A DNA stretch of 27,479 nucleotides, taken from contig DATFWE010000262.1 of the NCBI GenBank assembly GCA_035259575.1, positions 1 through 27,479 on the forward strand, given 5' to 3'. The notes below the pieces were generated by a model. It saw only the letters and a program-made list of their open reading frames with translations. It ran no database searches and was not told the DNA's origin. This document shows, piece by piece, positions 4,602 to 27,479 of the stretch; within the stretch, counting starts at the first letter, position 1; each line of letters begins with the position of its first letter. The stretch comes from Haliangiales bacterium (lineage in GTDB: Bacteria > Myxococcota_A > Polyangia > Haliangiales > SHYZ01). A program made the translations under genes and the position numbers.

Positions 4602-4602
4602 C

Positions 4603-9602: not shown

Positions 9603-9675
9603 GGGGGATCGTCACCGTAGCAGCTTCCCGCGCGCCGGCAATCGACTTTGGCGGTCCGTGATAGGGTCTCCAGCG

Positions 9676-10266: not shown

Positions 10267-11003
10267 TCGTGGACTCGCGCGAACGCTTCAGCGCCACCGC
10301 CGACGCCTATCGGCGCTATCGGCCCGGTTACCCCGCCCCGCTCCTCGACTGGATCGCGGCCACCACCGGCGCGCCGCCCGACGCCCGCGTGGCCGACATC
10401 GGCTGCGGCACCGGCATCTCCAGCCGCTTTCTGGCGACGCGCGGCTTCCGCGTCGTGGGCGTCGAGCCGAACGCGGACATGCTCGCGCACGCCCGCGCGG
10501 CCGGCGGCGGGCCCACCTACGTCCGGGGGGAGGCCGCGCGCACCGGCCTCCCCGACGCCTCGGTCGACCTCGTCACCGCGGCCCAGGCGTTCCACTGGTT
10601 CGAGCTCGAGCCGACGCTCGTCGAGATCCGGCGGATCGCCGTGCCCGGAGCGTGGATGTGCGCATTCTGGAACGTCCGCGTCGCGACCCCGTTCAACGAC
10701 GAGTACGAGCGCATCCTCCACGCTTACTCCAGCGAGTACGCGCCGCTGTCCGACACCCTCGATCCGCGCGACGCGATCCGCGCGGCCGTCGCCGGAACGG
10801 TGTGCACCGAGATGCACAACGACGAGGCGCTGGCGTGGGACGCGGTCCTGGGGCGCGCGCGTTCCGCGTCGTACGTCGCGCACGGCGTGGCCGATCTCGC
10901 CGGTTTCGAACGGGAGCTGCGGGCGGCCTACGAGCGCCACGCGCGGCCCGACGGCACGCTCGTGTGGGCGCTGCGCACCGTGGCGGCGGCGTGGCCGGCG
11001 TGA
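10263..11003 (+). CDS. Class I SAM-dependent methyltransferase
   Basis: Motif I is VADIGCGTGISSRFLATRGFRVVGVEPNADML, with an acidic residue at the end of beta-2 and motif II DLVTAAQAFHWF. The ATG overlaps the oxygenase stop (ATGA). Confidence 0.8.
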   Translation: MIVDSRERFSATADAYRRYRPGYPAPLLDWIAATTGAPPDARVADIGCGTGISSRFLATRGFRVVGVEPNADMLAHARAAGGGPTYVRGEAARTGLPDASVDLVTAAQAFHWFELEPTLVEIRRIAVPGAWMCAFWNVRVATPFNDEYERILHAYSSEYAPLSDTLDPRDAIRAAVAGTVCTEMHNDEALAWDAVLGRARSASYVAHGVADLAGFERELRAAYERHARPDGTLVWALRTVAAAWPA

Positions 11004-12469: not shown

Positions 12470-12486
12470 CGGGGTAAGCTTTCCCC

Positions 12487-13374
12487 GTGCCCGACGCACC
12501 GCGCTGGTTCCGAGACGCGCTCGCCGCGCCGCGGTCCGAGCACACGATCCATGTGGCGGGCGCCGGCATCCACTACGTTCGCTGGGGCGACGGCGGCAAG
12601 CCGGGGCTCGTCCTGGTCCACGGCGGCGCCGCGCACGCCGAGTGGTGGTCGTTCCTGGCGCCGCTGCTCACGCGCCAGTACGACGTCGTGGCGCTGGACC
12701 TGAGCGGCCACGGCGACAGCGACCGCCGCGAGGAGTATCCGCGTCGCGTGTGGGCCGACGAGGTTCTGGCCGTCATCGCCGACGCCCACTTCCCCGGCCC
12801 GCCGGTGCTGATCGGCCACAGCATGGGCGGGCTGGTGAGCATCGTCGCCGCGTCCGTCTACGGCGACGAGCTCGCCGGCGCGATCATCGTCGACGCGCCG
12901 GTGCGCAAGCCCGACCCGGAGAGCGAGGAGGGCAACTACGGGCGGAGCTTCCGCCACCCCAAGGTCTACCCGACGCTCGACGAGGCGGCGGCGCGGTTCC
13001 GCCTGATCCCGCCCCAGCCCGTCGAGGCCGCGTACATCGTCGACCACATCGCGCGCGCCTCCCTGCGCCGCGTCGACGGCGGCTGGACGTGGAAGTTCGA
13101 CCCGCGCGTGTTCATCAAGTTCTCCAAGGAGAAGATGAGCGACTACCTGTCGAGCACGCGCTGCCGGGTGGCGCTCCTGCGCGGCGAGAAGAGCATCGTC
13201 GTGCCCCCCGAGACGGGGACCTACATGTACGAGCTCCTCAGCCGCACCTCGCCCCTGGTCGAGATCCCCGAGGCGCACCACCACCTCATCCTCGATCAGC
13301 CGCTGGCGTTCATCGCGGCGGTGCGGGCGATCCTCGCCGACTGGGAGCACTCGATCCCGCGCGGGCCGGCGTGA
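12487..13374 (+). CDS. Alpha/beta-hydrolase fold protein, paralog 3
   Basis: PGLVLVHGGAAHAEWW, ALDLSGHGDSD and nucleophile elbow IGHSMGG. A GTG start is given, and codon bias supports coding from 12487. An alternative start is the GTG at 12553. Confidence 0.75.
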   Translation: MPDAPRWFRDALAAPRSEHTIHVAGAGIHYVRWGDGGKPGLVLVHGGAAHAEWWSFLAPLLTRQYDVVALDLSGHGDSDRREEYPRRVWADEVLAVIADAHFPGPPVLIGHSMGGLVSIVAASVYGDELAGAIIVDAPVRKPDPESEEGNYGRSFRHPKVYPTLDEAAARFRLIPPQPVEAAYIVDHIARASLRRVDGGWTWKFDPRVFIKFSKEKMSDYLSSTRCRVALLRGEKSIVVPPETGTYMYELLSRTSPLVEIPEAHHHLILDQPLAFIAAVRAILADWEHSIPRGPA

Positions 13375-14143
13375 GCGTGGCGACCAGCGTGCCGCGGTCG
13401 AACACCCACAGGTCCCCGGGGCGGCCCTGGGTCCACGTCTCGTTGTGGGTGAGCGGCGCGGTGGCGACGATCGCGACCCGATCGCGCGCCGTGGTCACCC
13501 GCGAGAAGTCGATGCGGACGTCCTCGTCGGCGAGCTGGGCCACGCCGAACGGCGCCTTGCGGATGATGTACCACAGCTTCGTGGAGCAGCGCGCGTAGAG
13601 GTGGCGGCCGTCGCCGAGGAGGAAGTTGAACGTGCCGTCGGCGCCGAGCTCGGCCCCGATGTCGGCGACCGCTTCCCACAGGTCGCTCGGCCGGCGCGGG
13701 TAGCCGGCGAACCGGCGATCCAGGCGCGCGAGCAGGCAGCAGAACGCGTGCTCGCTGTCGGTCTGCCCGATCGGGCGAAAGCGCCCGAGCCGCCGCCGCC
13801 GGACGCGGCGCAGCGTGCCGTTGTGGGCGAACACCCAGGTGCGACCCCACAGCTCGCGCGCGAACGGATGGGTGTTGGCGAGCGTGGTCTTCCCGCGCGT
13901 CCGGCGCCGCACGTGCCCCACCGCGAGCATCGTCTTGATCGGGTGCTCGCCGAGGAAGCTCGCGAGCGGGCTGCGCGCGGCCGGCGCCGGCTCGAGGAAC
14001 ACGCGCGCCGCGCGCCCCTCGTAAAACGCCAGCCCCCAGCCGTCGCCGTGCGGTCCGGTCTTGCCGCCGCGGAGCCGGAGACCCGTGAACGAGAACACGA
14101 TGTCGGTCGGCACGTTGCATTCCATCCCGAGGAGCTCACACAT
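13310..14143 (-). CDS. Class II (Ntn-type) glutamine amidotransferase, YafJ-like
   Basis: N-terminal Met-Cys nucleophile MCELLGM, with GxxGxxHGDGWG and HxRxAT-like blocks (GHVRRRTRGKTTLANTHPF). The 3' end overlaps the convergent hydrolase by 65 nt. Confidence 0.75.
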   Translation of the reverse strand: MCELLGMECNVPTDIVFSFTGLRLRGGKTGPHGDGWGLAFYEGRAARVFLEPAPAARSPLASFLGEHPIKTMLAVGHVRRRTRGKTTLANTHPFARELWGRTWVFAHNGTLRRVRRRRLGRFRPIGQTDSEHAFCCLLARLDRRFAGYPRRPSDLWEAVADIGAELGADGTFNFLLGDGRHLYARCSTKLWYIIRKAPFGVAQLADEDVRIDFSRVTTARDRVAIVATAPLTHNETWTQGRPGDLWVFDRGTLVATLTPARAGSSAPSRRGSPAPPR

Positions 14144-14174
14144 CGCGGCGACCGACGATTATACTGGCGGCGCG

Positions 14175-15968
14175 ATGCGCGGCACCGTGCTCGATGCATT
14201 GGGGCGCGCCGGCGATGCCGGCGACGGCGGCGTGGCCGCCGAGCTGGGCGTGCGGGGCGATCCGCTCCTGCGCGCGCGCGCCCGCCGCCAGCTCCACCGC
14301 GCGGTGTCGGTGGCGCGCGCCCGCACCGCCCTCACCGACGAGGTCCACGTCGTCCGCGTCGCCTACCTCATCGCCGCCGGCGCGCCGCCCGAGGCGCCCG
14401 ATGACGCCCCCGCGGTCGCCGAGGCCTACGCGCGCGTCCGCCGCGGCGCGCGGCGGCGGCTGCGCCCGTGGTGGCTGACCGGCGCGCTGGTCCTCGTCGC
14501 CGTCGGCGCCTTCGGCTACGCCCGGGGGTGGTGGCCGTCGCGCGGCGCGTACCGCCCCGCCGCCGCGCCCATCCGCGCCGCCGAGGCCGGGTCCACCGCG
14601 GCGGCGGCGTTCTGGCCGATGGCGGCGGCGCTCACCGAGTACGTGTCCGTCCTCGACGCGTGGGCGCGGGCCCGCCGCGCGGGCGACTCCGCCGGGACCG
14701 CGCGCGCCGACGAGCTCCTTGGGATGGCCCGCGCCGCCGTCATGCGCACCGCCGCCGGGCTGGGCGGCGCCACGCGCCGCTTCGACGAGCTTCTGACCGC
14801 GGCGCGCGAGGCGGCGGCCGCCGCGCCGTGGGCGCTGGAGGATGCCGCCGCCAAGCTCTACGCCGCCGTGGCCGCCGCCGACGACGAGGCGCCCGCCTAC
14901 GGCGTCTACTTCGACGCCGACGTCGTCATGGGGCAGAAGGGGCAGGAGGTCCTCGTCTGGATCTACGCCGTCGATCGCGTCGCGCGCTACGCCGCCGGGG
15001 CGACCGAGATCCGGGCCATCCAAGTGCGCCGGCTCGACAACCTCAACATGGTGCCCGACCTGGCCGGGCTCACCCGCCCCCACCTGCGCGAGGCGATCGT
15101 GCTGCTCGAGGTGCTCGAGCAGCTCATGGCGACCCTGTTCCTGCCCGCGCTCGCCGACGGCGCCTCCCTGCGCGTGGTGGATCCGCCGTCAGGCGCGAGC
15201 TTCGCCGAGCTCGCCGCGGTGGAGGCGCGCGCCGGCGAGATCGTGCGCGCCGAGCTGGGCGCCGCCCTCGGCGCGGACCGCGCCGCCGCCGCCAAGCTAG
15301 GCGAGTCGCTGACGCGGCGACGCGAGCTGTTCGCGCGCCTCGGCCGGGCGCTCGCCCCGCGCGGAATCTCGCTCGCGACGCCGCGCGGCCTGCGCCTGCC
15401 GGAGCAGGCGCGCTCCGAGCTCGACGCGATCCTGCCCCCGATCGAGCTCATGGAGATCGACGCCCTCGAGGCGGAGATCGGCGGCGAGCCCGCATCCAAG
15501 GCGTTCGCCGCGGCGATGGGAGCCATGGTCGACACCGTCGAACGGCACGAGGTGCAGCACCGGCTCGATCACGAGGCGGGCGGCCTGCCGCCGGTGGCGG
15601 CGCTGACCGCGCTCGGGGCCGACGACCGGGCGCGCGCCGAGCTCAGCGCCTACCTCGCCGAGATCCATCGCGACCCGCGCACGCCGCGGATCGGCCTCAC
15701 CCTCCTCATGAGGTTCGTGTTCGATTCCCGCCGTTGGGGCACGTCGGAATCGCTCGCGGGGATCGTCCTCCTCGAAGGGCTGGGCCGCGAGCTCGCCATC
15801 GGCGCGACCCCCATCGCCAAGAAAGGCGAGATCGACCGCGCCGCCGCCGCCAGGCTCTACCTCGCGGTGACCGACGCCCAGCCGGACCGGCTGCGCGACG
15901 CGGCGGGCCGGCTGTGGGCCAAGCTGTTCGGCTCGCCCCTGCCTCCGCTCGTGCGGGCGCAGCCCTGA
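14175..15968 (+). CDS. Ala-rich hypothetical membrane-anchored protein with an HExxH motif
   Basis: Tail of track ORF 14061..15968. The ATG at 14175 is the first start after the convergent GATase gene. There is a single predicted [20 protein letters not shown], and the motif [10 protein letters not shown] near the C-terminal domain. No other family signature was recognised. Confidence 0.5.
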
Positions 15969-16006: not shown

Positions 16007-16891
16007 ATGTTGCAGTTCCTCGCCGTCATGGGCGGCGTCGCCCTCATGTCGATCTTCACCGGCGTGAGGATCCTGCGCGAGTACGAGCGCGCGATCGTGT
16101 TCCGCCTGGGCCGCGCGCGCCGGCAGCCGGCCGGGCCGGGCCTGGTTCTGCTCCTGCCTTTCGGCATCGACCGCGCCCAGGTCGTCGACACGCGCACCAA
16201 GGTGATCCAGATCCCCGCCCAGGAGGTCATCACCCGCGACAACATCTCGATCGGCGTCGACGCGGTCGTCTACGCCGAGGTGGCGTCGCCCGCCGACGCG
16301 GTGCTGCGCGTCGAGGAGTACATGCCGGCCACGCTCCAGCTCGCCGCCACCACCCTGCGCTCGATCATCGGGCGGATGGAGCTCGACGAGGTCCTGGCAA
16401 AGCGCTCCGAGATCAACGACGAGGTGCGCACGATCCTCGATCTGCGCACCGAGCAGTGGGGGGTGGAGATCACCGCCGTCGAGATCAAGGACATCACGCT
16501 GCCGACGGAGATGAAGCGCGCCATGGCGCGGCAGGCCGAGGCGGAGCGCGAGCGGCGCGCCAAGGTGATCATCTCCGAGGGCGAGCTGCAGGCGGCGGAG
16601 AAGCTGGCGCAGGCGGCGCGGCTGATCGCGGGGGAGCCGGCGGCGCTCCAGCTGCGCCTGTACCAGACGCTCGTCGAGGTGTCGGCCGAGCCCAACATGA
16701 CGATCGTCGTGCCGGTGCCGATCGATCTTTTCGGCGGGGCCGGCGCGCAGGCGGCGGAGAAGGTCGCCGCCGGCGTCGCGGGCGCGCTCGGCCGCCCGTC
16801 GGCGACCGAGCAGCTGCCCAGCGGCGAGCGGCGCGACCCGCTGGCCGATCTCAAGCGCGCGAAGGCGGAGCTCGACAAGAAGCCCAAGTGA
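16007..16891 (+). CDS. SPFH/band-7 (stomatin/prohibitin-like) membrane protein
   Basis: N-terminal TM, then [16 protein letters not shown] and [18 protein letters not shown], followed by a coiled-coil Ala/Glu-rich tail. It is the in-frame tail of track ORF 14468..16891. Confidence 0.85.
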
Positions 16892-16926
16892 CAGCGCGCC
16901 CCGCGCGGGTGCAGAATACGCGCACC

Positions 16927-19824
16927 ATGCCCCGCTTGTGCCGCCTCGTGGTCCTGGTCGGCATCGCCGCGTGCGGAAGTGGAAGCGACACCGGCGGATC
17001 TCCCGACGCCCCACCCGGCGGCACGCCCGACGCGGCGCCCGCGGATGCGCCCACCTCGACGGTCGGACCCGGGGCGCAGCTCACGTTCGAGAGCGGCCCG
17101 GTGCGCCCGCTGGCGCTGTCGCCCGACGGGACGCGCCTCTACGTCGCGAACATCCCGAACGGCTCGCTCGATGTGCTGCGCGTCACCCCCGGCGGTCTCG
17201 CCTTCGACGGCTCGACCTACGTCGGCATCGACCCCGTCGCGGTGGCGGTGCGCGGCGACGGCGAGGTCTGGGTCGTCAACCACGTGTCGGACGACGTGAG
17301 CGTCGTCGACGTGTCCCGGAGCCCGCCGCGCGTCGTGCGCACGCTCCTCGTCGGCGACGAGCCGAGCGACATCGTCTTCGCCGGCCCCGGACGCGCGCGC
17401 GCGTTCGTCACCACCGCACACCGCGGCCAGCAGCGCACCAGCCCCGACCTCGCCGGCGTCCCCGGCGCGGGCGACCCCGCGCTCACCGTCGCCGGCACCG
17501 GGCGCGCCGACGTGTGGGTGTTCGACGCGACCGATCTCGGCACCGTGCTCGGCGGCCGCCCCGTCGCCATCATCACCCTGTTCGGCGACACCCCGCGCGC
17601 GCTGGCGACGACCCCCGACGGCAACACGGTATACGCCGCGGTGTTCAAATCGGGCAACGGCACCACCGCCACCGGGTCGCTGCTCTCCTGCAACGGCTTC
17701 GGCAACAACACGCCCTGCACGGTGGACGGCACCGTGCTGCCCGGCGCGGCGCCCGGACCGGGGACCAACCACGCCGGCGTCCCCGCGCCGCGCATCGGCG
17801 TGATCCTCAAGGTCGATGCGGGCGGCGCCTGGCGCGACGTCCTCGGGCGCGACTGGTCGGCGGCGGTGCGCTTCGACCTCCCCGACCAGGACGTCTTCGC
17901 CATCGACGCCGCGTCGCTCGCCACCACCGCGGTCTACCGCCACGTCGGCACGACGCTGTTCAACATGGCGGTGAACCCGAAGAGCGGCGTCGTCTACGTG
18001 TCCAACACCGAGTCGCGCAACGACCTCCGCTTCGAGGGGCCGGGGACGTTCGCCGGCACGACGCTGCAGGGGCACTTGGCCGAGACGCGCGTCACCGTCA
18101 TCACCGTCGCCGGGGCGGCTGCGGGCCAGGTGCTCCCACGCCATCTCAACAAGCACATCGATTATGCCGTCCTCCCCGCGCCGGCGGGCGTGAAGGACCA
18201 CAGCCTGGCCACGCCGCTCGACGTGGCCGTCACCGCCGACGGCGCGACGCTGTACGTGGCGGCGTTCGGCTCCGGCAAGGTCGGCGTCCTGCCCACCGCC
18301 GCGCTGGAGGACGACACCTTCGATCCCGTCGCCGCCAGCGCCGGCTACATCGCCGTGACGGGGGGTGGGCCCGGTGGGCTCGCCCTCGACGAGACCCGGC
18401 GCCGCCTGTACGTCGCCACCCGCTTCGACGACGGCGTGTCGGTGATCGACCTCGACACGCGTGCCGAAACGGCGCACCTCACGCTCGCCGACCCCGAGCC
18501 GGCCAAGGTGACCCAGGGGCGGCGGTTCCTCTACGACGCCGCGCTGTCGTCGTCGAACGGCGAGGCCGCGTGCGCCAGCTGCCACACGTTCGGCGACATG
18601 GACCACCTTGCCTGGGATCTCGGCAACCCCGACGGCGACGTCGTGCACACCCCGATCAACATCAAGCTCGCCGCCGGCGCGGGCTCGACCATCAACGGCT
18701 CCGGCGACGTCAGCGGCCTCCACCCGATGAAGGGGCCGATGACGACGCAGACGCTGCGCGGGATGGTGAACCACGGCGCGATGCACTGGCGCGGCGATCG
18801 CGTGTCCGGGTTCTTCGGCACCGACACGCGCACGCAGCCGCCGTACGACTCGGAGCTGGCGTTCAAGAACTTCATCGTGGCGTTCAACGGCCTGCTCGGC
18901 CGCGACGCCATGCTGCCGCCCGACGCGATGCAGGCGTTCTCCGACTTCGCGCTGCGCATCGTCGTGCCGCCCAACCCGGTGCGCCCGCTCGACAACTCCC
19001 TCACCGATGCGCAGGCGCGCGGCCGCAGGTTCTTCATGGGGTGCGACGGCCTCGACAGCATCGCGGCGACGGACGTCGTCTGCTCGGGCGACCGCCCGGT
19101 CGGCGCCGGCCACTTCTCCGACGGGGTGGGCTTCCCCGGCTTCGGCTTCACCTGCGAGGGGTGCCACACGCTCCGCCCCGAGCTCGGCTTCTTCGGCACC
19201 GACGGCGAGTCGAGCTTCGAGGCGCTGCCGCAGATCAACAAGGTCCCCCACCTGCGCAACGTCTACGACAAGATCGGCATGTTCGGCGTGCCATCGCAGC
19301 CCGCGGCCAACCCGGGCGACAACGGGCCGATGGGAAACCAGATCCGCGGATTCGGCTTCGAGAACGACGGCAGCGTGGATACGCTGTTCCGCTTCCTCCA
19401 GGCGCGCGTGTTCAACCGCGCCCAGAGCGGCCGCGTCGGCTTCGCCAACGGTGACCCGCAGCGGCGCGACGTGGAGCAGTTCCTCCTCGCGTTCGACAAC
19501 GACCTCGCGCCGATCGTGGGCCAGCAGGTGACGTTGCGCGCCGATAACGCCGGCGCCGCCGGCCCGCGCATCGCCCTGCTCATCGCGCGGGCGCAGACGC
19601 CGTTCGCCTCCAAGATCCTGGGCGCGGGCGCGACCGAGTGCGACCTCGTCGCGCGCGCGGTCATCGGCGGCGCGGCCACGACGTATCACCTCGTCGGTGG
19701 GCAGTTCGCGCCCGAGGGCGGCGGCGCCGCGCTGTCCGACACCGCGCTGCGCGCGCTCGCGCAGACGCCGGGCCAGGAGATCACCTACACCTGCCTGCCG
19801 CCGGGATGGGGCGCGCGCAGATGA
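16927..19824 (+). CDS. Lipoprotein fusing an N-terminal YVTN-type beta-propeller to a C-terminal di-haem cytochrome c peroxidase / MauG-family domain
   Basis: Lipobox LVGIAAC|GSG. Propeller repeats are LSPDGTRLYVAN, TTPDGNTVYAAV, VTADGATLYVAA and DETRRRLYVAT. The first haem site, GRRFLYDAALSSSNGEAACASCHTF, resembles the CCP N-terminal block LFFD..LS....SC.SCH. The second CxxCH is FTCEGCHT, about 170 aa downstream. It is the in-frame tail of track ORF 16456..19824. Confidence 0.75.
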   Translation: MPRLCRLVVLVGIAACGSGSDTGGSPDAPPGGTPDAAPADAPTSTVGPGAQLTFESGPVRPLALSPDGTRLYVANIPNGSLDVLRVTPGGLAFDGSTYVGIDPVAVAVRGDGEVWVVNHVSDDVSVVDVSRSPPRVVRTLLVGDEPSDIVFAGPGRARAFVTTAHRGQQRTSPDLAGVPGAGDPALTVAGTGRADVWVFDATDLGTVLGGRPVAIITLFGDTPRALATTPDGNTVYAAVFKSGNGTTATGSLLSCNGFGNNTPCTVDGTVLPGAAPGPGTNHAGVPAPRIGVILKVDAGGAWRDVLGRDWSAAVRFDLPDQDVFAIDAASLATTAVYRHVGTTLFNMAVNPKSGVVYVSNTESRNDLRFEGPGTFAGTTLQGHLAETRVTVITVAGAAAGQVLPRHLNKHIDYAVLPAPAGVKDHSLATPLDVAVTADGATLYVAAFGSGKVGVLPTAALEDDTFDPVAASAGYIAVTGGGPGGLALDETRRRLYVATRFDDGVSVIDLDTRAETAHLTLADPEPAKVTQGRRFLYDAALSSSNGEAACASCHTFGDMDHLAWDLGNPDGDVVHTPINIKLAAGAGSTINGSGDVSGLHPMKGPMTTQTLRGMVNHGAMHWRGDRVSGFFGTDTRTQPPYDSELAFKNFIVAFNGLLGRDAMLPPDAMQAFSDFALRIVVPPNPVRPLDNSLTDAQARGRRFFMGCDGLDSIAATDVVCSGDRPVGAGHFSDGVGFPGFGFTCEGCHTLRPELGFFGTDGESSFEALPQINKVPHLRNVYDKIGMFGVPSQPAANPGDNGPMGNQIRGFGFENDGSVDTLFRFLQARVFNRAQSGRVGFANGDPQRRDVEQFLLAFDNDLAPIVGQQVTLRADNAGAAGPRIALLIARAQTPFASKILGAGATECDLVARAVIGGAATTYHLVGGQFAPEGGGAALSDTALRALAQTPGQEITYTCLPPGWGARR

Positions 19825-21586: not shown

Positions 21587-22264
21587 ATGCGCGCCGGCGC
21601 CCCCCGGGCCTTCGTGCGACGGGTGCTCGAACGGCTCGGGCGGGCCTATGGCGCGGTCCGGTGGCGGCGGGAGGATCCGGTCGTGTGCCTCATCGGCACC
21701 ATCCTCGCCCAGGCGACCAACGATCCCCTCGCGGAGCGCGCCTATCGTTCCCTGCGCCGCCGCTTCCCCACCTGGATGGACGTGCTCGAGGCGCCGCCCG
21801 CCGAGGTCGAGGAAGCCATCAAGATGTCCGGCCTGGCGGCGCAGAAGGCCCGCGCCATCCAGGCGTTCCTCGCGCACCTTCTGGCCACGCGCGGGCGCTT
21901 CTCGCTCGCCGACCTGCGCCGCCCCGGCCTCGACGTCGACGCCGCGCTCGCCGACCTGTCGAGCATCCCCGGCGTGGGGATCAAGACGGCGGCGATCACC
22001 CTGATGTTCGGCGCCGGCGTGTCGCTGTGCGCCGTGGACACGCACCTCGTGCGCATCCTGCGCCGCCTCGCGATCGTGCCGCCCAAGGCCGCGCCCGACC
22101 GCGCGTTCCGGATCCTGCGCCCGCTCGTGCCCGATGGCCGCGGCATCGAGCTCCACATGCAGCTCATCCGGTTCGGGCGGAACGTCTGCCGCGCGCCCGT
22201 ACCGCGCTGCTTCGACTGCGCGCTCCGGGAGATCTGCCCGTTCCCCGACAAGACGCCGAGCTGA
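21587..22264 (+). CDS. Endonuclease III-like HhH-GPD DNA glycosylase with a [4Fe-4S] cluster loop
   Basis: LIGTILAQATND, the HhH-GPD element LSSIPGVGIKTAAITL...AVDTHLVRI, and the C-terminal Cys-x6-Cys-x2-Cys-x5-Cys loop (CRAPVPRCFDCALREIC). An alternative GTG start at 21560 overlaps the SDR stop. Confidence 0.75.
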   Translation: MRAGAPRAFVRRVLERLGRAYGAVRWRREDPVVCLIGTILAQATNDPLAERAYRSLRRRFPTWMDVLEAPPAEVEEAIKMSGLAAQKARAIQAFLAHLLATRGRFSLADLRRPGLDVDAALADLSSIPGVGIKTAAITLMFGAGVSLCAVDTHLVRILRRLAIVPPKAAPDRAFRILRPLVPDGRGIELHMQLIRFGRNVCRAPVPRCFDCALREICPFPDKTPS

Positions 22265-22274
22265 CCCCGGTAGC

Positions 22275-22619
22275 TCACGGCCACTCGCGGGCGAGGCGGA
22301 ACGCCCGGCCCCGCCGGCGTACGAGCCCCTCGGTGCGCAGGCGCGTGAGGATCGCGCGCACCTCGGCGGCGCGGTAGACCGAGTGATTGATCCAGTCGAT
22401 GAACGAGACAAGGTCGGCGACGTCCGCCGACCCGCCGAAATACACCAGGCCCGAAAGCACGAGCTCGTCGTCGGTCCAGGCGAGCTCGGCCCGGCGGTCG
22501 CGCTTGGCCTTCTGGTACGCGCCGCGCGACACGCCGAAACGGGCGCACGCTTCCGCCACGGTCTTCCCGGGGACGCGGGCGAGCTTGAGCGCGCGCAGCA
22601 GCGTCGCCGGATCGGCCAT
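22275..22619 (-). CDS. Small helix-turn-helix DNA-binding protein (putative transcriptional regulator)
   Basis: MADPATLLRALKLARVPGKTVAEACARFGVSRGAYQKAKRD is an HTH-like segment, followed by a second winged-helix-like stretch. The ATG at 22619 sits next to a palindromic operator candidate. Confidence 0.5.
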   Translation of the reverse strand: MADPATLLRALKLARVPGKTVAEACARFGVSRGAYQKAKRDRRAELAWTDDELVLSGLVYFGGSADVADLVSFIDWINHSVYRAAEVRAILTRLRTEGLVRRRGRAFRLAREWP

Positions 22620-22639
22620 CGCCTCGATCGTATACCGAG

Positions 22640-22657
22640 CTGACGTCAGGGTTGACG
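22640..22657. promoter_or_regulatory. Candidate operator: perfect 10-bp palindrome CTGACGTCAG followed by a third TGACG half-site (TTGACG), in the divergent intergenic region between the HTH gene and the RraA/NeuB operon
   Basis: Read directly at 22640-22649 (ctgacgtcag) and 22652-22657 (ttgacg). An adjacent GTATAC palindrome lies at 22630-22635. These are the only conspicuous symmetric elements in a 123-nt divergent promoter region. Confidence 0.35.
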
Positions 22658-22742
22658 CCGCAGGCGGGTTCCGCGCGGGGACGTTCGCCAGCAAAGACGG
22701 ATGCTTACCGATGGCGCTCGCCTTGCAACGACCCCGGGCGAT

Positions 22743-23414
22743 ATGGATCTCCACCGCCGATTCGCCCGCCTCTACCTGGGCGTCGTGTACGACGCCATGC
22801 GCTTCGACCTACGTGTGGACCGCGCGTTCGTCGTCCACCGCGAGATCAAGCCGACCTGGCCGCTCGGGGCCGACGAGGTGCTTTTCGGGCAGGCGTTCAC
22901 CTGCCGCGGCGCGCGCGTGCTCGAGCCCGATCACATCGACGACACCATCCGCATCCGCATGTTCCGCGACTTCACGCCCGGCAGCGTCCAGGTCATCGAC
23001 ACCGGCGGCGACGACGGCGTGGCCCACTTCGGCGACATCTCGGGCAAGCTCGCCCGCAAGTTCGGCGCGCGCGGCGCGGTGATCGACGGCTACACCCGCG
23101 ACGCCCGCATCCTCCATCAAGATCGTTTCCCCGTGTTCTGCCGCGGCACGCAGCCCACCGACGCGTACGGCCGGTGGCAGATCGTCGCCTGGAACGAGCC
23201 GGTGATGCTTCCCGGCTCGGAGGGGGTCGTCGGCGTGTCGCCCGGCGACTACATCTTCGGCGATCCCGACGGCGTGCTCGTCATCCCGCACCGACTCGGG
23301 GCGGAAGTGTGCGCCCTCGCCGAGGCCCGCCTCGCCCGCGAGGACGAGGTGCGCGCCGAGCTCAGGGAGACCGACGACATCCAGGGCCTCTATGACCGCA
23401 TCGGGAGGTGGTAG
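22743..23414 (+). CDS. RraA-family protein (RraA / 4-hydroxy-4-methyl-2-oxoglutarate aldolase-oxaloacetate decarboxylase-like)
   Basis: VQVIDTGGDDGVAHFGDISGKLARKFGARGAVIDGYTRDARIL matches the conserved GDVxV.D.G...A.xGxxx...A...G..GxVxDGxxRD core of the family. An alternative start at 22701 is possible. Confidence 0.65.
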   Translation: MDLHRRFARLYLGVVYDAMRFDLRVDRAFVVHREIKPTWPLGADEVLFGQAFTCRGARVLEPDHIDDTIRIRMFRDFTPGSVQVIDTGGDDGVAHFGDISGKLARKFGARGAVIDGYTRDARILHQDRFPVFCRGTQPTDAYGRWQIVAWNEPVMLPGSEGVVGVSPGDYIFGDPDGVLVIPHRLGAEVCALAEARLAREDEVRAELRETDDIQGLYDRIGRW

Positions 23415-23415
23415 C

Positions 23416-24348
23416 GTGACCACGTTCGTCGCCGAGTTCACCACCAACCACATGGGGAACCTCAACGTCCTCCTGCGCATGGTCGAGGAGGCCGCGCGCG
23501 CGGGCGCGAGCCTCATCAAGATGCAGAAGAAGGACGTCGACACGTTCTACTCCAAGGAGAAGCTCGACTCGCCCTACCAGAGCCCCTACGGCAAGACCTA
23601 CCGCGACTACCGCCGCATGTTCGAGTTCGACCGAGAGGACTTCCAGCGTTTCGATCGCAAGTGCCGGCAGGAGGGGATCGGCTGGTTCTCGACGGTGCAG
23701 GACATCCCGTCGCTCCGCTTCATGCTCGAGCTCGGCCTCGACCACTTCAAGGTCGCGTCGTCCAACGCGCGCAACCGCCCGCTCCTCGAGGAGTGCGCGC
23801 GCTCGATCCCCCGGGACGCGACGATCGTGATCTCGGTCGCCGGCTCGACGCTCGCCCAGGTCGACGAGGCGCTGTCGATCTTCCCCGATCACAAGATCTG
23901 GCTGCTCCACTGCGTCGCCCAGTACCCCTGCCCGCCGGAGAACCTGCGCCTGGGCAACATCGCCGAGCTGCGCCGGTCGTTCGCGTCCGAGCGGGTGCGC
24001 ATCGGCTACTCCGGCCACGAGGAGGGCATCCCGCCGTCGCTCGCCGCCATCTCGATGGGCGCCGAGCTCGTCGAGCGCCATTTCTGCCTGTCGCGCCACT
24101 CGTTCGTCCACCACATCGAGTGCAGCCTCGAGCCGGACGAATTCCGCGCCCTAGTCGACGCCGCCCGCTCCCGGGCGGAGATCGCCGCCGCGGTCGCCGG
24201 GATGCCGCCGGCCGCGTTCGCGCAGAAGCTGGGCATGACCGAGACCGAGAAGACGTTCCTCGTCGCGCAGACGTACGGCAAGCGGTTCATCCAGGGGGGC
24301 GCGTCGTTCCCCGAGGGCGAGCCGGCGCCGGTGGAGAAGGCGGCGTGA
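23416..24348 (+). CDS. NeuB-family ulosonic acid synthase (sialic/pseudaminic/legionaminic acid synthase-like, PEP-condensing TIM barrel), apparently without a canonical C-terminal SAF domain
   Basis: GTG at 23416, preceded by GGGAGG 7 nt upstream. The N-terminus TTFVAEFTTNHMGNLNVLLRMVEEAARAGASLIKMQKK parallels NeuB (IIAEIGxNHNGSLE...AGADAVKFQ). The metal-site region is VERHFCLSRHSFVHHIECSLEPDE. The protein is about 310 aa. Confidence 0.8.
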   Translation: MTTFVAEFTTNHMGNLNVLLRMVEEAARAGASLIKMQKKDVDTFYSKEKLDSPYQSPYGKTYRDYRRMFEFDREDFQRFDRKCRQEGIGWFSTVQDIPSLRFMLELGLDHFKVASSNARNRPLLEECARSIPRDATIVISVAGSTLAQVDEALSIFPDHKIWLLHCVAQYPCPPENLRLGNIAELRRSFASERVRIGYSGHEEGIPPSLAAISMGAELVERHFCLSRHSFVHHIECSLEPDEFRALVDAARSRAEIAAAVAGMPPAAFAQKLGMTETEKTFLVAQTYGKRFIQGGASFPEGEPAPVEKAA

Positions 24349-25016
24349 CCCCCACGGTCGTCGCATTCGTCCACGCCAAGGGCAAGAGCGAGCGCGTCCA
24401 CCGGAAGAACCTGCGGCGCCTGGGCGACCGGCCGCTGTTCTGCCACGCCATCGCCAACGCGCGCGCCGCCCGCAACGTCGACCTCGTGGTCATCGACAGC
24501 GAGGACGACGACATCCTGGCGATCGGGGCGCACGCCGGGGCGCGGCCGCTCAAGCGGCCCGTCGAGCTCGCCGACAACCGCACGTCGGGCGACCAGCTCG
24601 CCTACTGGCAGGCGTCGAATTTCCCCGGGTCGACGTACGTCGTGCAGGTGATCCCCACGTCGCCGTTCCTGCGTCCGGCGACGATCGACCGCGCCATCGA
24701 CATGCTGCGCGACGGCGACGCGGACAGCGTCGCCGGCGTGTTCTCCGACGTGCAGTACACCTGGCGCGACAATCGCCCCACCTACTACCGCGCCGACGGC
24801 ACGCTGCCCAACTCGAGCGAGATGGAGCCCACGATCTTCGAGACCACGGGCCTGTACGCCAACCGCACCGAGGCCGTACTGCGCACGCGCCGCCGCATGA
24901 ACCCCGACCGCGCGCTGCCGCTCGTCGTCTCGCGCATCGAGGCGATCGACGTCAACACGCCCGAGGACTTCGAGATGGCCGAGATCGTGTGGCGGGGGAT
25001 GGGAGGGCGGGAATGA
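24345..25016 (+). CDS. CMP-ulosonic acid synthetase (acylneuraminate / Kdo cytidylyltransferase family)
   Basis: The N-terminus VAFVHAKGKSERVHRKNLRRLGDRPL matches the IPARGGSKRIPRKNI nucleotidyltransferase P-loop. A GTG start overlaps the upstream stop (GTGA). It is the in-frame tail of track ORF 23661..25016. Confidence 0.75.
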   Translation: MTPTVVAFVHAKGKSERVHRKNLRRLGDRPLFCHAIANARAARNVDLVVIDSEDDDILAIGAHAGARPLKRPVELADNRTSGDQLAYWQASNFPGSTYVVQVIPTSPFLRPATIDRAIDMLRDGDADSVAGVFSDVQYTWRDNRPTYYRADGTLPNSSEMEPTIFETTGLYANRTEAVLRTRRRMNPDRALPLVVSRIEAIDVNTPEDFEMAEIVWRGMGGRE

Positions 25017-25645
25017 GGTTCTTCCTCGCGCGCCACGGCGAGACGGAGTGGAACCGCGCCGGACGGATGCAGGGCCGCCACGGCGGCAAGCTCACCGACA
25101 AGGGGATCGCTCAGGCCCACGCGCTCGGCGGCGCGGCGCGCCGGCTGGGCGTCGCCCGCGTGGTCACGAGCGCGCTCGATCGAGCCGTCGAGACCGCGCG
25201 CATCGTCGCCGACGCGGCGGGGTGCCCCCTCCTCGCCTGCGACGCGCTGGTGGAGACCGATTTCGGCGCCTGCGCCGGCCTCACCGAAGCGGAGATAGCG
25301 GCGCGGTTCCCCGACCTGCGCGCCGAGCGCGAGCGCGACAAGTGGCGCCATCGCTGGCCCGGCGGCGAGAGCTACGCCGACATGGCCGAGCGGGTGTGGC
25401 AGGCCGGTCCGCTCATCCGCGAGGCCGACGCGCTCGTCGTCGCCCACCAGTCGATGAACCGCGTCCTCGCGCACGTGTTCGCCCCCGCGGCGGTGGCGGA
25501 CGTCCTGCGCATGGCCCAGCCCTCCGACGTGCTGCTCCGCCTCGACGGCAGCGGCGCCGCCGCGCACGCCCAGGTCCCCGGATCCGGCGACGCGCTCGCC
25601 TGGCAGGACGGCCTGTACTTCGGCGGTGCGGTCCGGTTGAACTGA
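25013..25645 (+). CDS. Histidine phosphatase superfamily protein (phosphoglycerate-mutase-like branch)
   Basis: MRFFLARHGETEWN carries the RHG catalytic motif, with a downstream His in ALVVAHQSMNR. The ATG overlaps the upstream stop (ATGA). Confidence 0.8.
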   Translation: MRFFLARHGETEWNRAGRMQGRHGGKLTDKGIAQAHALGGAARRLGVARVVTSALDRAVETARIVADAAGCPLLACDALVETDFGACAGLTEAEIAARFPDLRAERERDKWRHRWPGGESYADMAERVWQAGPLIREADALVVAHQSMNRVLAHVFAPAAVADVLRMAQPSDVLLRLDGSGAAAHAQVPGSGDALAWQDGLYFGGAVRLN

Positions 25646-27469
25646 TCAGAACGCGACCGGCTCGAGCCGCACGTCCGCGAGCTCGAACGACGCGGCGCCC
25701 GCCTCCGGCGGAAGCGCGAACACGACCTCGACGTGGCTTGCCGGGCCGGGTTTGCGGCCGACGAGCGGGGGGACGAGCCCGACGTGGACGAGCTCGCGCC
25801 ATTCGCGGTCGAGCGCGACGAGCTGCGCCTGGGTGCCCATGCCGGGCCTTCCGTCGTCGAGCTGGAGATAGAGGTAGACGAGCAGGGATGCGCGCTCGGC
25901 GCTGCGCGCGCGGAAGCGCAGGCGGGCGAGCGATCCGGCGCACGCGGCCGCGTCGGGCACGCGCGCGAGGAACAGCATCGGGCCGTCGCCGGCGCGCCTC
26001 CGCCGGACGGAGGCCGACGGCCCGGCCTCGCCGTCGGCGCGGCGGACCTCGCCGATCCCCCCCGAGAAGTCGAGGAAGTGCCAGCCGTCGGGGCCCTCCT
26101 GCCCCACCCACAGCGGGCCGGGGCCGCGCGACCAGGCGGCGAAGTCGCCGTTCGGCACGACGCCGCGCAGCTTGCGCGCGGACAGTTCGTCGAGGTTGCG
26201 AAACAACAGCGCCGCCAGCTCGTCGACCGGGGCGATCGGGTCGAAGAAATCGAGCCCGCACCGGCCGGCGCGGGCCCGCTCGACGCCGCGCTCTAGGAAG
26301 GGGACGAGCCAGCCGGGCGTCCGGCACAGCTCGAGCGGCACGAAGTAATGGGTGGCGAGCCAGGCCAGCGCTCGGTCCGTGCGCGGGTCTGCGCGCGGCA
26401 GCGTCGCGGGGAAGCGGTCGAGGCCGACGTGGGCGGCGAACGGGGCGAGATGGCTCGTGCCGATCGCGAACAGCGGCCGCTCGAAGAACAGCGCCTGGAA
26501 CGCCAGCGAGCTCGACACCGACACGACGAAGTCGGCGTGGTGGACGAGGTACTGCCCTGCGCTCTCGGCGGCGCGGAAATCGACGAGCGTCACGCGCGGA
26601 TGGCGCTCCGCCAGGTAGTCGCGCGTCTCCTCGTCGAGGAAATCGCCCAGCCAGTGAGCCGTGGGGTGCTCGACCACGATCAGCCCGACGTCGGGGGGAA
26701 GCTTTTCCATCACGTGAAACAGGTACTCGCCCTGGTTGCGGAACGGGGCGTTCGCGTCGAAGCCCGACTCCCCGCCGAATTGCAGGGGCAGAAATCCGAG
26801 GCGCGCGTGGCGAGCGCGCAGCTCGCGCTCGAGCGCGGCGAACGGCGTGGTCGCCGCGAAGTACGCTGAGAAGCGGCGGCGGAGCTCGGCGAGGAGGTCG
26901 CGCTCGCCGCCGCCGGGCTCGCGGGCAAAAAGCTCCGCCGCGCGCGCCGCGGGCACCGATCGATCCCACAGCCCGGCGGGATCGAAGAACAGGCACATCG
27001 GGTAGGGGGCGCGCGAATAGGCGGCGGTCTCGGTGGCGAGGTGGAGCGCGCGCGGGTAGGCGGCGCGCAGCTGGGCGGCGGGCGTGAGGGACAGGACCAC
27101 GTCTGGCTCGAACTCGCCGACGGCCGCGCGCACGAGCGCGGCGTAGGCCTCGACCTGGGCGGGCGCGAAGCTTCCCCGGTGAAGCCCGGCGAGGATGGCG
27201 ACGTTGGGGGCGTCGAACGTAGCGCGAATCGCTTCCTGCCCAAGGACGACCACGTCGGTCGGGGCGAGCCCGTGCCCCGCGCGCGCGCCCGCGCCGGCGT
27301 CGCGCGGCGCCGTGGCGCGCCCCGCCAGCGCATCGTTCGTCACCACCCGGACGCGGCCGCCCGCGGCGCCGATCGCGCGCGCCATGTCGGCGAAGAACCC
27401 GAGCCACGCCCAGTAGTGGAACGGCCGCCCGTGCATGACCAGCGGCTCGACGAAGAACAGGACGTCCAC
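25646..27469 (-). CDS. KpsS/KpsC-like capsule-polysaccharide biosynthesis protein family (beta-Kdo glycosyltransferase family); the 5' end may extend beyond the window
   Basis: VLFFVEPLVMHGRPF resembles LLLQGPMGPFF. GLIVVEHPTAHWLG resembles LVIKHHPMDRG. FVVSVSSSLAFQALFFERPLFAIGTSHLA resembles VVTINSTAGISALIHNKPLKVMGNALY. The comparison KpsS sequence is recalled from memory and not verified. The frame remains open upstream of the annotated GTG to the window edge. Confidence 0.55.
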   Translation of the reverse strand: MDVLFFVEPLVMHGRPFHYWAWLGFFADMARAIGAAGGRVRVVTNDALAGRATAPRDAGAGARAGHGLAPTDVVVLGQEAIRATFDAPNVAILAGLHRGSFAPAQVEAYAALVRAAVGEFEPDVVLSLTPAAQLRAAYPRALHLATETAAYSRAPYPMCLFFDPAGLWDRSVPAARAAELFAREPGGGERDLLAELRRRFSAYFAATTPFAALERELRARHARLGFLPLQFGGESGFDANAPFRNQGEYLFHVMEKLPPDVGLIVVEHPTAHWLGDFLDEETRDYLAERHPRVTLVDFRAAESAGQYLVHHADFVVSVSSSLAFQALFFERPLFAIGTSHLAPFAAHVGLDRFPATLPRADPRTDRALAWLATHYFVPLELCRTPGWLVPFLERGVERARAGRCGLDFFDPIAPVDELAALLFRNLDELSARKLRGVVPNGDFAAWSRGPGPLWVGQEGPDGWHFLDFSGGIGEVRRADGEAGPSASVRRRRAGDGPMLFLARVPDAAACAGSLARLRFRARSAERASLLVYLYLQLDDGRPGMGTQAQLVALDREWRELVHVGLVPPLVGRKPGPASHVEVVFALPPEAGAASFELADVRLEPVAF

Positions 27470-27479
27470 GCGGCGATTG

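Follow-up and report, generated by a model that had tools for sequence, protein, structure and literature searches.

A five-gene island of a Haliangiales bacterium with an unusual combination of enzymes, most likely for an activated acidic sugar of the sialic acid/Kdo class

Ulosonic acids (Kdo, sialic acids, Pse, Leg) are key bacterial surface determinants, and both the pathways that make them and the transferases that attach them are used as drug targets, typing markers, and tools in glycoengineering. In a 27,479-nucleotide stretch of DNA from a Haliangiales bacterium (contig DATFWE010000262.1; the window), 5 adjacent genes at positions 22743 to 27469 raise the question of which sugar of this class they might make, and for what acceptor. 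The initial annotation proposed an unusual route to an activated ulosonic acid that serves a KpsS/KpsC-like transferase, perhaps for a novel glycolipid anchor. According to our analysis, the most likely product of the island is an acidic sugar of the sialic acid/Kdo class in activated form, made by an unusual combination of enzymes. We estimate at roughly two in three the probability that it makes a CMP-activated 3-deoxy-2-ulosonic acid and moves it onto a glycan.

Layout and distribution of the island

The window has a GC content of 74%, and GC3 frame analysis backs exactly the 5 reading frames named in the initial annotation. Four are on the + strand, starting with an RraA-like gene (22743..23414; 223 aa) as the first of the operon, followed by genes for a SAF-less NeuB-like synthase (23416..24348; 310 aa), a NeuA/PseF-like cytidylyltransferase (24345..25016; 223 aa), and a branch 1 histidine phosphatase (25013..25645; 210 aa). 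The fifth, a convergent transferase-like gene (25646..27469; 607 aa), is on the - strand. The sequence agrees with the proposed coupling of the + strand genes: the RraA-like stop codon ends at 23414 and the GTG start of the NeuB-like gene follows at 23416 with GGGAGG in front, while the next 2 junctions are a GTGA overlap (24345-24348) and an ATGA overlap (25013-25016), the latter preceded by GGGAGGG. Shine-Dalgarno-like motifs thus accompany coupled junctions. The phosphatase stop codon ends at 25645 and that of the convergent gene begins at 25646, leaving zero spacer. The start at 22743 gives an RraA-like protein of 223 aa, in agreement with homologues of 222 to 223 aa, and translation from the GTG at 27469 yields the 607 aa of protein P0121, with no difference in length or sequence. 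A promoter and terminator scan of 22000-27479 yielded nothing informative. A small HTH gene (22275-22754, - strand) has no phmmer match in 37 related loci and is not part of the island.

The arrangement is far beyond chance: at least 15 independent loci, found in Myxococcota (Polyangia), Eisenbacteria, Burkholderiaceae, and further MAGs, have the 5 genes in identical order and orientation although their flanks are unrelated. The 5 genes are a self-contained, horizontally mobile island that has been widely transferred. All homologues of the 607-aa protein that were examined adjoin the synthesis module, which by itself is also found beside other transferases in Alphaproteobacteria, Pelagibacteraceae, Prochlorococcus, Melainabacteria, and Firmicutes. 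Its NeuB-cytidylyltransferase-phosphatase core is kept from Myxococcota to Prochlorococcus, Pelagibacteraceae, Gastranaerophilales, and Oscillospiraceae and is paired with a different candidate transferase in each group, which is the usual pattern of a nucleotide-sugar supply module. The RraA-like gene lies directly upstream of the NeuB-like gene in more than 20 loci, and the histidine phosphatase is found in nearly all module loci. Paraburkholderia youngii, however, has RraA-NeuB-cytidylyltransferase without an adjoining histidine phosphatase, and Geminicoccaceae-type loci have the module without RraA, so that neither accessory enzyme is universally required. A literature search found no description of a gene set combining an RraA-like protein with NeuB and a cytidylyltransferase.

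The surroundings of the island do not favour the proposed group 2 capsule glycolipid anchor. By Pfam, kpsM/T/E/D/F/U-like genes, including the exporter genes whose presence nearby was to be checked, are absent from the window and from up to 9-10 kb around the island in 6 related loci. The nearest homologues of the island, moreover, point to a high-GC, myxobacterium-like genome. The five-gene islands examined are all free of transporters, flippases, polymerases, and initiating transferases; with no linked exporter, flippase, or acceptor-synthesis gene, a surface glycan as the target is an assumption. The window also has no homologues of genes that neighbour the module in other loci (an 829-aa Bcs3-like protein, a 328-aa protein, TylF and FkbM methyltransferases, and DUF115-like proteins).

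A NeuB-type synthesis module

Pfam searches bore out the family proposed for each of the 4 soluble enzymes, all of which keep their catalytic motifs, and all NCBIfam matches were far below cut-off. The proposed enzyme set, with a NeuB-like synthase instead of KdsA and a histidine phosphatase, is confirmed, and an unusual route to the activated sugar is its probable function.

The NeuB-like synthase matches PF03102 over aa 22-254 (1.2e-53; 182.5 bits versus a cut-off of 22.1). It stays below equivalog level for NeuB (TIGR03569; 178.3 bits versus 399.65) and PseI (TIGR03586; 126.7 bits versus 340.25); these NCBIfam matches end at approximately position 256 of 329 in the model, and no SAF domain was matched in the Pfam search. 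The C-terminal SAF (antifreeze-like) domain completes the sugar site of the partner subunit, with Arg314 as the residue in N. meningitidis NeuB. The best PDB match is likewise a SAF-less NeuB, of 290 aa (6ncs), and all family members have 299 to 325 aa, with a mean column identity of 58% across phyla. In the alignment to SpsE (1vli), KVASSN lies opposite KIASYE, placing Asn117, invariant in a 30-sequence family alignment, opposite the SpsE Glu that we take to be the equivalent of N. meningitidis NeuB E134. E134, a conserved acidic residue with a catalytic role, belongs to the K-I-[AG]-S-x-E motif (PMC8208679); by this alignment, the NeuB-like synthase does not have it.

The cytidylyltransferase (PF02348; 2.7e-13, 50.7 bits versus a cut-off of 22.6) resembles NeuA/PseF rather than KdsB, as judged by sequence matches. 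It scores 79 bits with PseF (cut-off 205.7, hence below equivalog level) and 15.6 to 33.6 bits with KdsB models (cut-offs 155 to 281), and a PDB search at E<=1e-3 returned only NeuA/CMP-sialic acid synthetases, PpNeuA among the best, and no KdsB. CMP-ulosonate synthetases have an N-terminal K/R-x-S-x-R...K-N nucleotide-binding motif; here, AFVHAKG.S.RV..KN is kept in 28 copies.

The histidine phosphatase (PF00300; 2e-42, 145.5 bits) has its best PDB matches among fructose-2,6-bisphosphatase domains (1.6e-22), so that its nearest solved relatives are sugar-phosphate phosphatases. The motifs RHG.T.WN, E..fG, and H...n, which include the catalytic RHG...H, are kept in 30 module copies. We regard it as a putative ulosonate-phosphate phosphatase; a phosphatase step is a hallmark of the Kdo-8-P, Neu5Ac-9-P, and Kdn-9-P routes, and the Kdn-9-P and Neu5Ac-9-P phosphatases known to us are HAD-type.

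The RraA-like protein matches PF03737 (6.9e-24, 85.2 bits), with all NCBIfam aldolase and RraA equivalogs far under cut-off. In the PDB, it is matched best by 5ir2 (8.6e-14), along with the HMG/CHA aldolase 3noj (5e-7). The G-D...D-G-x-x-R-D segment (VAhFGDISG...GaV.Dg.tRD) is kept in 21 module copies; in HMG/CHA aldolase, the Arg-Asp pair of this segment is a ligand for Mg2+ and the enolate of pyruvate. The protein is a putative Mg-dependent pyruvate aldolase/decarboxylase-type enzyme.

Could these enzymes simply be a non-orthologous version of the ordinary CMP-Kdo route? The NeuB-like synthase would then act on arabinose-5-P, the histidine phosphatase would stand in for KdsC, and a dedicated beta-Kdo transferase would be fed, much as kpsF/kpsU duplicate the Kdo supply in capsule loci. 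We consider this rather unlikely, since the synthase is of NeuB and not KdsA type, the cytidylyltransferase sides with NeuA/PseF, no arabinose-5-P isomerase is linked to the island, and Kdo synthesis has no known step for an RraA-like enzyme. In addition, the module is present in Oscillospiraceae and other Firmicutes MAGs, groups that are not known to make Kdo.

A divergent transferase-like protein with a glycan-binding-type domain

The 607-aa protein consists of a retaining beta-Kdo-transferase-like modified GT-B domain (N-terminal approximately 430 aa; 26180..27469, - strand) and a CBM4/CBM22-like beta-sandwich (C-terminal approximately 170 aa plus stop codon; 25646..26152, - strand), the latter a putative acceptor-glycan binding domain. 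The KpsS/KpsC likeness put forward initially stands in part. PF05159 matches aa 199-342 (21.2 bits, E 2.3e-4) just above its gathering score of 20, a match that is real but marginal; structurally, however, the protein is nearest to WbbB/GT99, an O-antigen-capping enzyme, and not to KpsC. It has the highly modified GT-B fold common to WbbB, KpsC, and KrkA. When PDB sequences were searched with profiles of the full alignment or of a 211-column sub-alignment, KpsC was matched weakly and over the C-terminal nucleotide-binding segment only, and the search from the 607-aa family did not retrieve WbbB.

The HP motif of retaining beta-Kdo transferases provides the CMP-phosphate-binding general acid. 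It is kept in the 607-aa protein (E267-H268-P269, with H268-P269 at nt 26668-26663, - strand), its His being invariant in 38/38 family members and present in 48/49 sequences of a wider set. In the N-terminal half, WbbB has a general-base Glu and a sugar-binding Arg (E158/R163), for which E147 (41/49) and R153 (48/49) are candidate counterparts by their similar spacing. In GT99, GT107, and GT140, the Asp nucleophile of a QXXXD motif is absolutely conserved (PMC9587256, PMC10148158, PMC12887879). The 607-aa protein does not have this Asp: Gln230 is invariant and the residue at +4 is an invariant Glu (LPLQFGGE; Q230-x3-E234, nt 26782-26768, - strand). At the level of sequence, LPLQFGGE(234)SGFD lines up with the published KpsC peptide VVDQTFND(160)MSV (PMC10148158). 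More distant homologues have Tyr or Phe at +4, and the acid that they keep is at +8, D238 (nt 26758-26756, - strand). With Glu replacing the strictly conserved Asp, the mechanism may differ, a point of direct relevance to the double displacement that recent work has established for such enzymes.

Members of the wider GT-domain family are N-terminal modules of multi-domain glycan polymerase or terminator proteins, fused to GT2, GT4, WbsX, methyltransferase, and ribofuranosyltransferase modules; WbbB and KrkA are likewise multi-module fusions (PMC12887879). A 633-aa protein beside the P. youngii module is unrelated to the 607-aa protein (hhalign probability 0.1) and has no Pfam match.

A PKS-type cluster lies approximately 15 kb upstream of the island in the window. 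Together with the missing linked exporter or other glycosyltransferase in the five-gene loci examined, it could be accommodated if the cassette made a cytoplasmic or small-molecule glycoside (a compatible solute, secondary-metabolite tailoring sugar, or lipid head group) instead of decorating a surface glycan. We think this improbable: no other island copy examined has a PKS cluster, the transferase carries a CBM4-like glycan-binding domain, homologous GT domains are fused to polysaccharide polymerase modules, and modules without a 607-aa-type transferase are surrounded by the GT2, GT4, sulfotransferase, and methyltransferase genes of polysaccharide clusters. An ordinary locus for sialic, legionaminic, or pseudaminic acid (decorating flagellin, LPS, or capsule) that looks odd through divergence would explain why NeuB_NnaB, PseI, and PseF score best among the NCBIfam models and why source databases label homologues 'N-acetylneuraminate synthase', but it is very improbable given scores all below half of the equivalog cut-offs, a synthase without SAF domain and with Asn for the SpsE Glu, a dedicated phosphatase and RraA-like enzyme foreign to such bacterial pathways, and the absence of NeuC, PseB/C/H/G, LegB/C/H/G, aminotransferase, acetyltransferase, Maf, and flagellin genes from the window and, by Pfam, from the annotated flanks of related islands.

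Proposed pathway and relation to known systems

From the domain identities, fold, motif conservation, and gene linkage of the island, we infer substrates, step order, mechanism, and acceptor for the preferred reading, transfer of a CMP-activated ulosonic acid to a glycan. The SAF-less NeuB-like enzyme would condense PEP with a phosphorylated aldose to an ulosonate phosphate, the histidine phosphatase would take off the distal phosphate, and the NeuA-like cytidylyltransferase would convert the ulosonate to CMP-ulosonate. The 607-aa enzyme, with its GT99/GT107-like fold and CBM4-like domain, would then act in the cytoplasm and add the sugar, as a cap or repeat-unit sugar, to a glycan of other origin at its non-reducing end. 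Transfer would probably be by retaining double displacement as in beta-Kdo transferases, in which case Glu234 (or Asp238) would be the nucleophile and the HP-motif residue His268 the acid. The RraA-like enzyme would be integral; it may supply a substrate or set the C4 stereochemistry, via aldol chemistry on a 2-keto-4-hydroxy acid.

As to the sugar, a deaminated nonulosonic acid of Kdn type is more likely than Kdo. The linked synthesis genes, among them a cytidylyltransferase gene that is NeuA/PseF-like and not KdsB-like, argue for a donor other than Kdo; to our knowledge, however, CMP-Kdo is the donor of every known member of the GT99/GT107/GT140 fold, which counts for Kdo and against a nonulosonic acid. 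Tentatively, one could go further and suppose an ulosonic acid other than Kdo, Kdn, Neu, Leg, or Pse, its carbon skeleton or C4 configuration set jointly by the SAF-less NeuB-type synthase and the RraA-type metal-dependent aldolase, with the 607-aa protein founding a new CAZy family of CMP-ulosonate transferases that have a Glu nucleophile and an in-built CBM and cap glycans; this is possible but doubtful. The island would be a third enzyme solution for synthase-phosphatase-activation (NeuB-type, histidine phosphatase, RraA-type), and the 607-aa protein would add a deeply divergent branch to the small retaining Kdo-transferase fold. The spread of the module over Prochlorococcus, Pelagibacteraceae, soil myxobacteria, and Melainabacteria of the gut suggests that glycans in the environment contain an acidic sugar that has been overlooked. 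As the unit is compact, with 5 genes, heterologous expression could identify the sugar.

Among characterised transferases, the N-terminal GT99 domain of WbbB (Raoultella terrigena/Klebsiella O12 O-antigen terminator, PDB 5fa0) has 16% identity to the 607-aa protein, which differs in having Glu for the nucleophile Asp, in being a stand-alone protein in which a CBM4-like domain at the C-terminus takes the place of polymerase modules, and in being linked to its own sugar-synthesis operon and not to an O-antigen cluster. KpsC/KpsS (GT107), which build the group 2 poly-Kdo linker, have 2 GT modules and QxxxD, whereas the 607-aa protein has one, plus the CBM-like domain, and QxxxE, and the island is without kpsMTED/FU genes. 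KrkA (GT140, PDB 9yfx) combines a Kdo-transferase with a ribofuranosyltransferase for the E. coli K13 capsule (PMC12887879); its sequence similarity to the 607-aa protein is not detectable, and the window holds no ribofuranosyltransferase partner.

In Streptomyces, SCO4873-SCO4882 contains NeuB/NeuA homologues beside a NeuE-like capsule-type protein and makes a wall polymer that contains Kdn (PMC3479208, PMC11481543); Streptomyces scabiei has SAF-less NeuB homologues, and Streptomyces belongs to a mostly SAF-less NulO synthase group I (PMC8208679). Compared by published descriptions, this teichulosonic acid cluster differs from the island in host phylum and has no reported RraA-like gene or histidine phosphatase. 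The idea of an actinobacterial Kdn/teichulosonic ortholog, which arose from the 74% GC, was rejected on this ground and because the nearest homologues of the island are in Polyangia and other Myxococcota. In the Kdn route of Bacteroides thetaiotaomicron and Prymnesium parvum, Man-6-P and PEP give Kdn-9-P, then Kdn and CMP-Kdn (PMC6200933). The island departs from it in having a phosphatase of the histidine-phosphatase superfamily, an additional RraA-like enzyme, and a synthase without SAF, but shares with it a NeuB-family synthase on a sugar phosphate, a dedicated phosphatase, a NeuA-type cytidylyltransferase, and a gene set free of amino-sugar tailoring.

The genes of the island and the predicted pathway

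At approximately 74% GC, raw ORF lists for the window are unreliable, and we used a third-position GC frame plot instead. This plot backed the five frames of the initial annotation and, together with the sequence itself and Pfam, confirmed the genes and junctions named there. On the plus strand lie genes for an RraA-like protein (22743-23414; PF03737, 6.9e-24), a NeuB-like synthase (23416-24348; PF03102, 1.2e-53), a cytidylyltransferase (24345-25016; PF02348, 2.7e-13) and a histidine phosphatase (25013-25645; PF00300, 2e-42). A convergent gene on the minus strand (25646-27469) encodes a 607-aa transferase, whose anticipated match to PF05159 is present but marginal (21.2 bits versus a gathering score of 20). 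The RraA-like gene is translationally coupled to the synthase gene across a gap of 1 nt (23414/23416), the synthase and cytidylyltransferase genes share a GTGA overlap at 24345, and the cytidylyltransferase and phosphatase genes an ATGA overlap at 25013, with a GGAGG-like motif 5' of each start. Starting at 22743, the RraA-like protein has 223 residues (222-223 in homologues), and the GTG at 27469 yields a 607-aa product identical to the database protein P0121. The stop codons of the phosphatase and transferase genes abut directly at 25643-25648, so that neither an intergenic base nor a terminator-like hairpin separates them; the corresponding gap in relatives is 5-130 nt.

For the four soluble enzymes, every NCBIfam match falls far under its equivalog cut-off: NeuB (178 versus 399.65), PseI (127 versus 340), PseF (79 versus 206), KdsB (at most 34 versus 155-281) and HMG/CHA aldolase (55-57 versus 179-305). 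The synthase has no SAF domain, and its best solved relative, 6ncs, is likewise a SAF-less NeuB homologue (290 aa). In the printed alignment with SpsE (1vli), its KVASSN segment stands opposite KIASYE, and the Asn is invariant in the family; we take the SpsE Glu to be equivalent to E134 of N. meningitidis NeuB. The alignment would thus place an invariant Asn at the position of the catalytic Glu of canonical NeuB (E134 in N. meningitidis numbering; PMC8208679). For the cytidylyltransferase, the PDB matches are exclusively NeuA-type CMP-sialic acid synthetases, including Prymnesium PpNeuA, with no KdsB among them. The phosphatase retains the catalytic RHG/His residues and finds its closest PDB matches in fructose-2,6-bisphosphatase domains (1.6e-22), which are sugar-phosphate phosphatases. 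All 21 RraA-like copies (21/21) keep the D-G-x-x-R-D segment known from metal-dependent pyruvate aldolases.

By analogy with known routes, a sugar phosphate and PEP would be condensed to an ulosonate phosphate, which would be dephosphorylated to the ulosonate and then activated to CMP-ulosonate. A dedicated phosphatase is a hallmark of the Kdo-8-P, Neu5Ac-9-P and Kdn-9-P routes, and we put the probability of this general mechanism at about 0.7. As to the sugar, a Kdn-type deaminated nonulosonic acid is favoured, because the activating enzyme is NeuA-like, the synthase is of the NeuB type and there is no aminotransferase or acetyltransferase. Kdo draws its support from the precedents for the transferase fold, which are exclusively Kdo-specific; among known sugars we weight the Kdn type and Kdo roughly 2:1. 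A sugar not yet described is a less likely but appreciable possibility. In Geminicoccaceae-type loci, an SDR and a 328-aa protein take the place of RraA, and since the core appears to work there without it, the RraA-like step is more likely to serve in tailoring or substrate supply, e.g., C4 epimerisation by retro-aldol/aldol chemistry, than in the minimal route.

The 607-aa transferase and its relatives

The beta-Kdo transferase family is defined by its modified GT-B fold together with two motifs, HP and QXXXD; the Asp of the latter is the covalent nucleophile and "absolutely conserved" (PMC9587256, PMC10148158, PMC12887879). The 607-aa protein has the fold and the HP motif and lacks a canonical QXXXD, with Glu at the Asp position; E-H268-P and L-P-L-Q230-F-G-G-E234 are invariant in its family. 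When the published KpsC peptide VVDQ156TFND160MSV is aligned with LPLQ230FGGE234SGFD238, the nucleophile position would be filled by Glu234, and both Glu234 and Asp238 are candidates for the nucleophile. By CAZy practice, as with KrkA, the protein would probably constitute a new family. The initial annotation had proposed an uncharacterised CMP-ulosonic-acid system serving a KpsS/KpsC-like enzyme, possibly for a novel ulosonic acid glycolipid anchor. The uncharacterised system, paired with an enzyme of the Kdo-transferase fold, stands, but a glycolipid anchor of a group 2 capsule is unsupported. The enzyme has its closest analogues in WbbB, which caps O-antigen, and in the capsule polymerase KrkA, and it contains a putative glycan-binding (CBM-like) module.

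When 1.84 billion representative proteins were searched with a profile of the transferase domain, 485 relatives were returned at E<1e-30. Most carry a domain of approximately 430 residues at the N terminus of proteins of 600-2000 aa, with GT2, GT4, WbsX, methyltransferase or HAD modules as partners and, as read from the sequences (database proteins P0187-P0315), long coiled-coil-like stretches; this architecture is of the WbbB/KrkA type. Distant relatives have Tyr or Phe at position 234, and their conserved acid is Asp238, four residues later. They may use a chemistry other than that of the retaining Kdo transferases known so far.

A lead on the type of product comes from five related loci (L007, L009, L011, L016 and L035), in which an 829-aa HAD-domain gene lies upstream of the module (282-2771 in L009). 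Its product shares homology with the part of Bcs3 that comprises the phosphatase and the ribofuranosyltransferase, Bcs3 being the H. influenzae (Hib) capsule polymerase (9h50, 3e-11), and with the ribofuranosyltransferase 7shg. In several distant relatives of 1149-1199 aa, the transferase-like domain precedes a HAD module and a long C-terminal region like those of the 829-aa protein (proteins listed for these observations: P0233, P0239, P0247, P0259, P0286 and P0308), a layout that mirrors KrkA, where a Kdo transferase is joined to a ribofuranosyltransferase. These observations point tentatively to ribofuranose-ulosonate polymers, as in E. coli K13. The window has no gene of the 829-aa type.

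Distribution and surroundings

The closest homologues of the NeuB-like protein (75-92% identity) are from Polyangiaceae and Polyangia MAGs, and identity within the family is still approximately 60% in Burkholderiaceae, Geminicoccaceae and Eisenbacteria. Linkage was surveyed via encoding-contig look-ups and by scanning 185,579 species genomes, which gave 33 loci; the window proteins were compared by phmmer with six-frame ORFs of the related loci L001-L037. The full five-gene set, including the convergent 607-aa gene, occurs in Polyangia, other Myxococcota, Eisenbacteria, Burkholderiaceae and other MAGs. The four sugar-synthesis genes without the 607-aa transferase are found in Eilatimonas milleporae DSM 25217, single-cell genomes of Pelagibacteraceae and Prochlorococcus, Gastranaerophilales, one Oscillospiraceae MAG and one gammaproteobacterium, while Geminicoccaceae-type Alphaproteobacteria have the NeuB-cytidylyltransferase-phosphatase core without RraA.

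When the search was begun from 607-aa homologues, the gene was convergent on the module in 3/3 long contigs examined, and the flanks of these contigs were unrelated, with housekeeping, chemotaxis and sigma-factor genes among them. Neither an exporter, flippase, second glycosyltransferase or kps gene nor a Pse/Leg/NeuC tailoring gene is linked to the island in the window and the Pfam-annotated flanks of relatives, so that both the kps exporters and the conventional Pse/Leg surroundings of the NeuB-like gene raised in the initial annotation are absent there. The recurrence with unrelated flanks, together with the lack of linked accessory genes, identifies the five genes as a discrete island, which is probably horizontally mobile. 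GC is 0.69-0.71 across 22001-25000 versus 0.73-0.78 over most of the window, consistent with horizontal acquisition.

The neighbours of the module elsewhere support the view that it supplies a nucleotide sugar for polysaccharides. In Eilatimonas, GT2, FkbM methyltransferase and sulfotransferase genes surround it, along with the gene of a 414-aa protein that matches PF05159 weakly. In the cultured carrier Paraburkholderia youngii (L041; GCA_014200925.1, JACHDE010000009.1), RraA-NeuB-cytidylyltransferase genes without an adjacent histidine phosphatase adjoin APS kinase, methyltransferase and 845-aa sulfotransferase genes; a 633-aa protein without a Pfam match follows the cytidylyltransferase, and RepB, recombinase and IS21 genes are close by. 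The Prochlorococcus and Pelagibacteraceae modules adjoin GT4, sulfotransferase-like and radical SAM genes. Sulfotransferase genes thus adjoin the module in Eilatimonas, P. youngii and Pelagibacteraceae (L024:7918-8997; L041:7467-10004 and 1190-1798; L029:3578-4588), lineages unrelated to one another, and the ulosonate-containing glycans may therefore be sulfated. Gastranaerophilales have DUF115/MptE-like (Maf-type) proteins directly upstream and a cytidylyltransferase fused to a second CTP_transf_3 domain (220 bits; L032:11473-12867, L025:3195-4580). The RraA-less Geminicoccaceae-type variant (L003:7032-9840; same in L017, L019, L021-L023 and L034) has a conserved FkbM methyltransferase (minus strand), an SDR (plus strand) and the 328-aa protein, followed by NeuB-cytidylyltransferase-phosphatase. 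The 328-aa protein has no Pfam match; its T-D-G and F-H-P motifs are, to our eye, reminiscent of GT52 sialyltransferases.

Elsewhere in the window, the region at 1-7043 (plus strand) is headed by the C-terminal portion of a large PKS comprising acyltransferase, PKS dehydratase and C-terminal 4'-phosphopantetheinyl transferase domains, a layout reminiscent of synthases of the iterative enediyne or PUFA type. Behind it come a small ACP-like ORF, two alpha/beta hydrolases, a GT1 glycosyltransferase (EryCIII/UDPGT-like) and a hexapeptide-repeat protein; other copies of the island lack this PKS cluster. The run at 9574-13374 (plus strand) encodes a 2OG-Fe(II) oxygenase, a class I methyltransferase, a 501-aa leucine carboxyl methyltransferase-domain protein and an alpha/beta hydrolase, and is overlapped by approximately 65 nt by a convergent class II glutamine amidotransferase gene (GATase_4; 13310-14143, minus strand). 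Beyond are plus-strand genes for a 635-aa protein without a Pfam match (14061-15968) and a 978-aa protein with weak lactonase/SMP-30 beta-propeller and di-haem cytochrome c peroxidase matches (16888-19824), with a Band 7/SPFH gene between them. Band_7 and Pirin genes are also near the island in the relative L038, which suggests partial synteny with the window. A small divergent gene (22275-22754, minus strand) with weak helix-turn-helix matches (HTH_23, MarR_2) overlaps a longer possible RraA-like start (22701) and has no conserved counterpart next to the island in L001-L037.

Comparison with known systems

A literature search for this gene combination found no paper describing it. We regard the teichulosonic (Kdn) cluster of Streptomyces as an analogue of the island and not as a demonstrated ortholog. 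The phosphatases of the known Kdn-9-P and Neu5Ac-9-P routes are HAD-type. The pathway logic is familiar, but three elements are new: the phosphatase is a histidine phosphatase and not a HAD enzyme, an RraA-type enzyme has been added, and the transferase is divergent, with QxxxE and a CBM.
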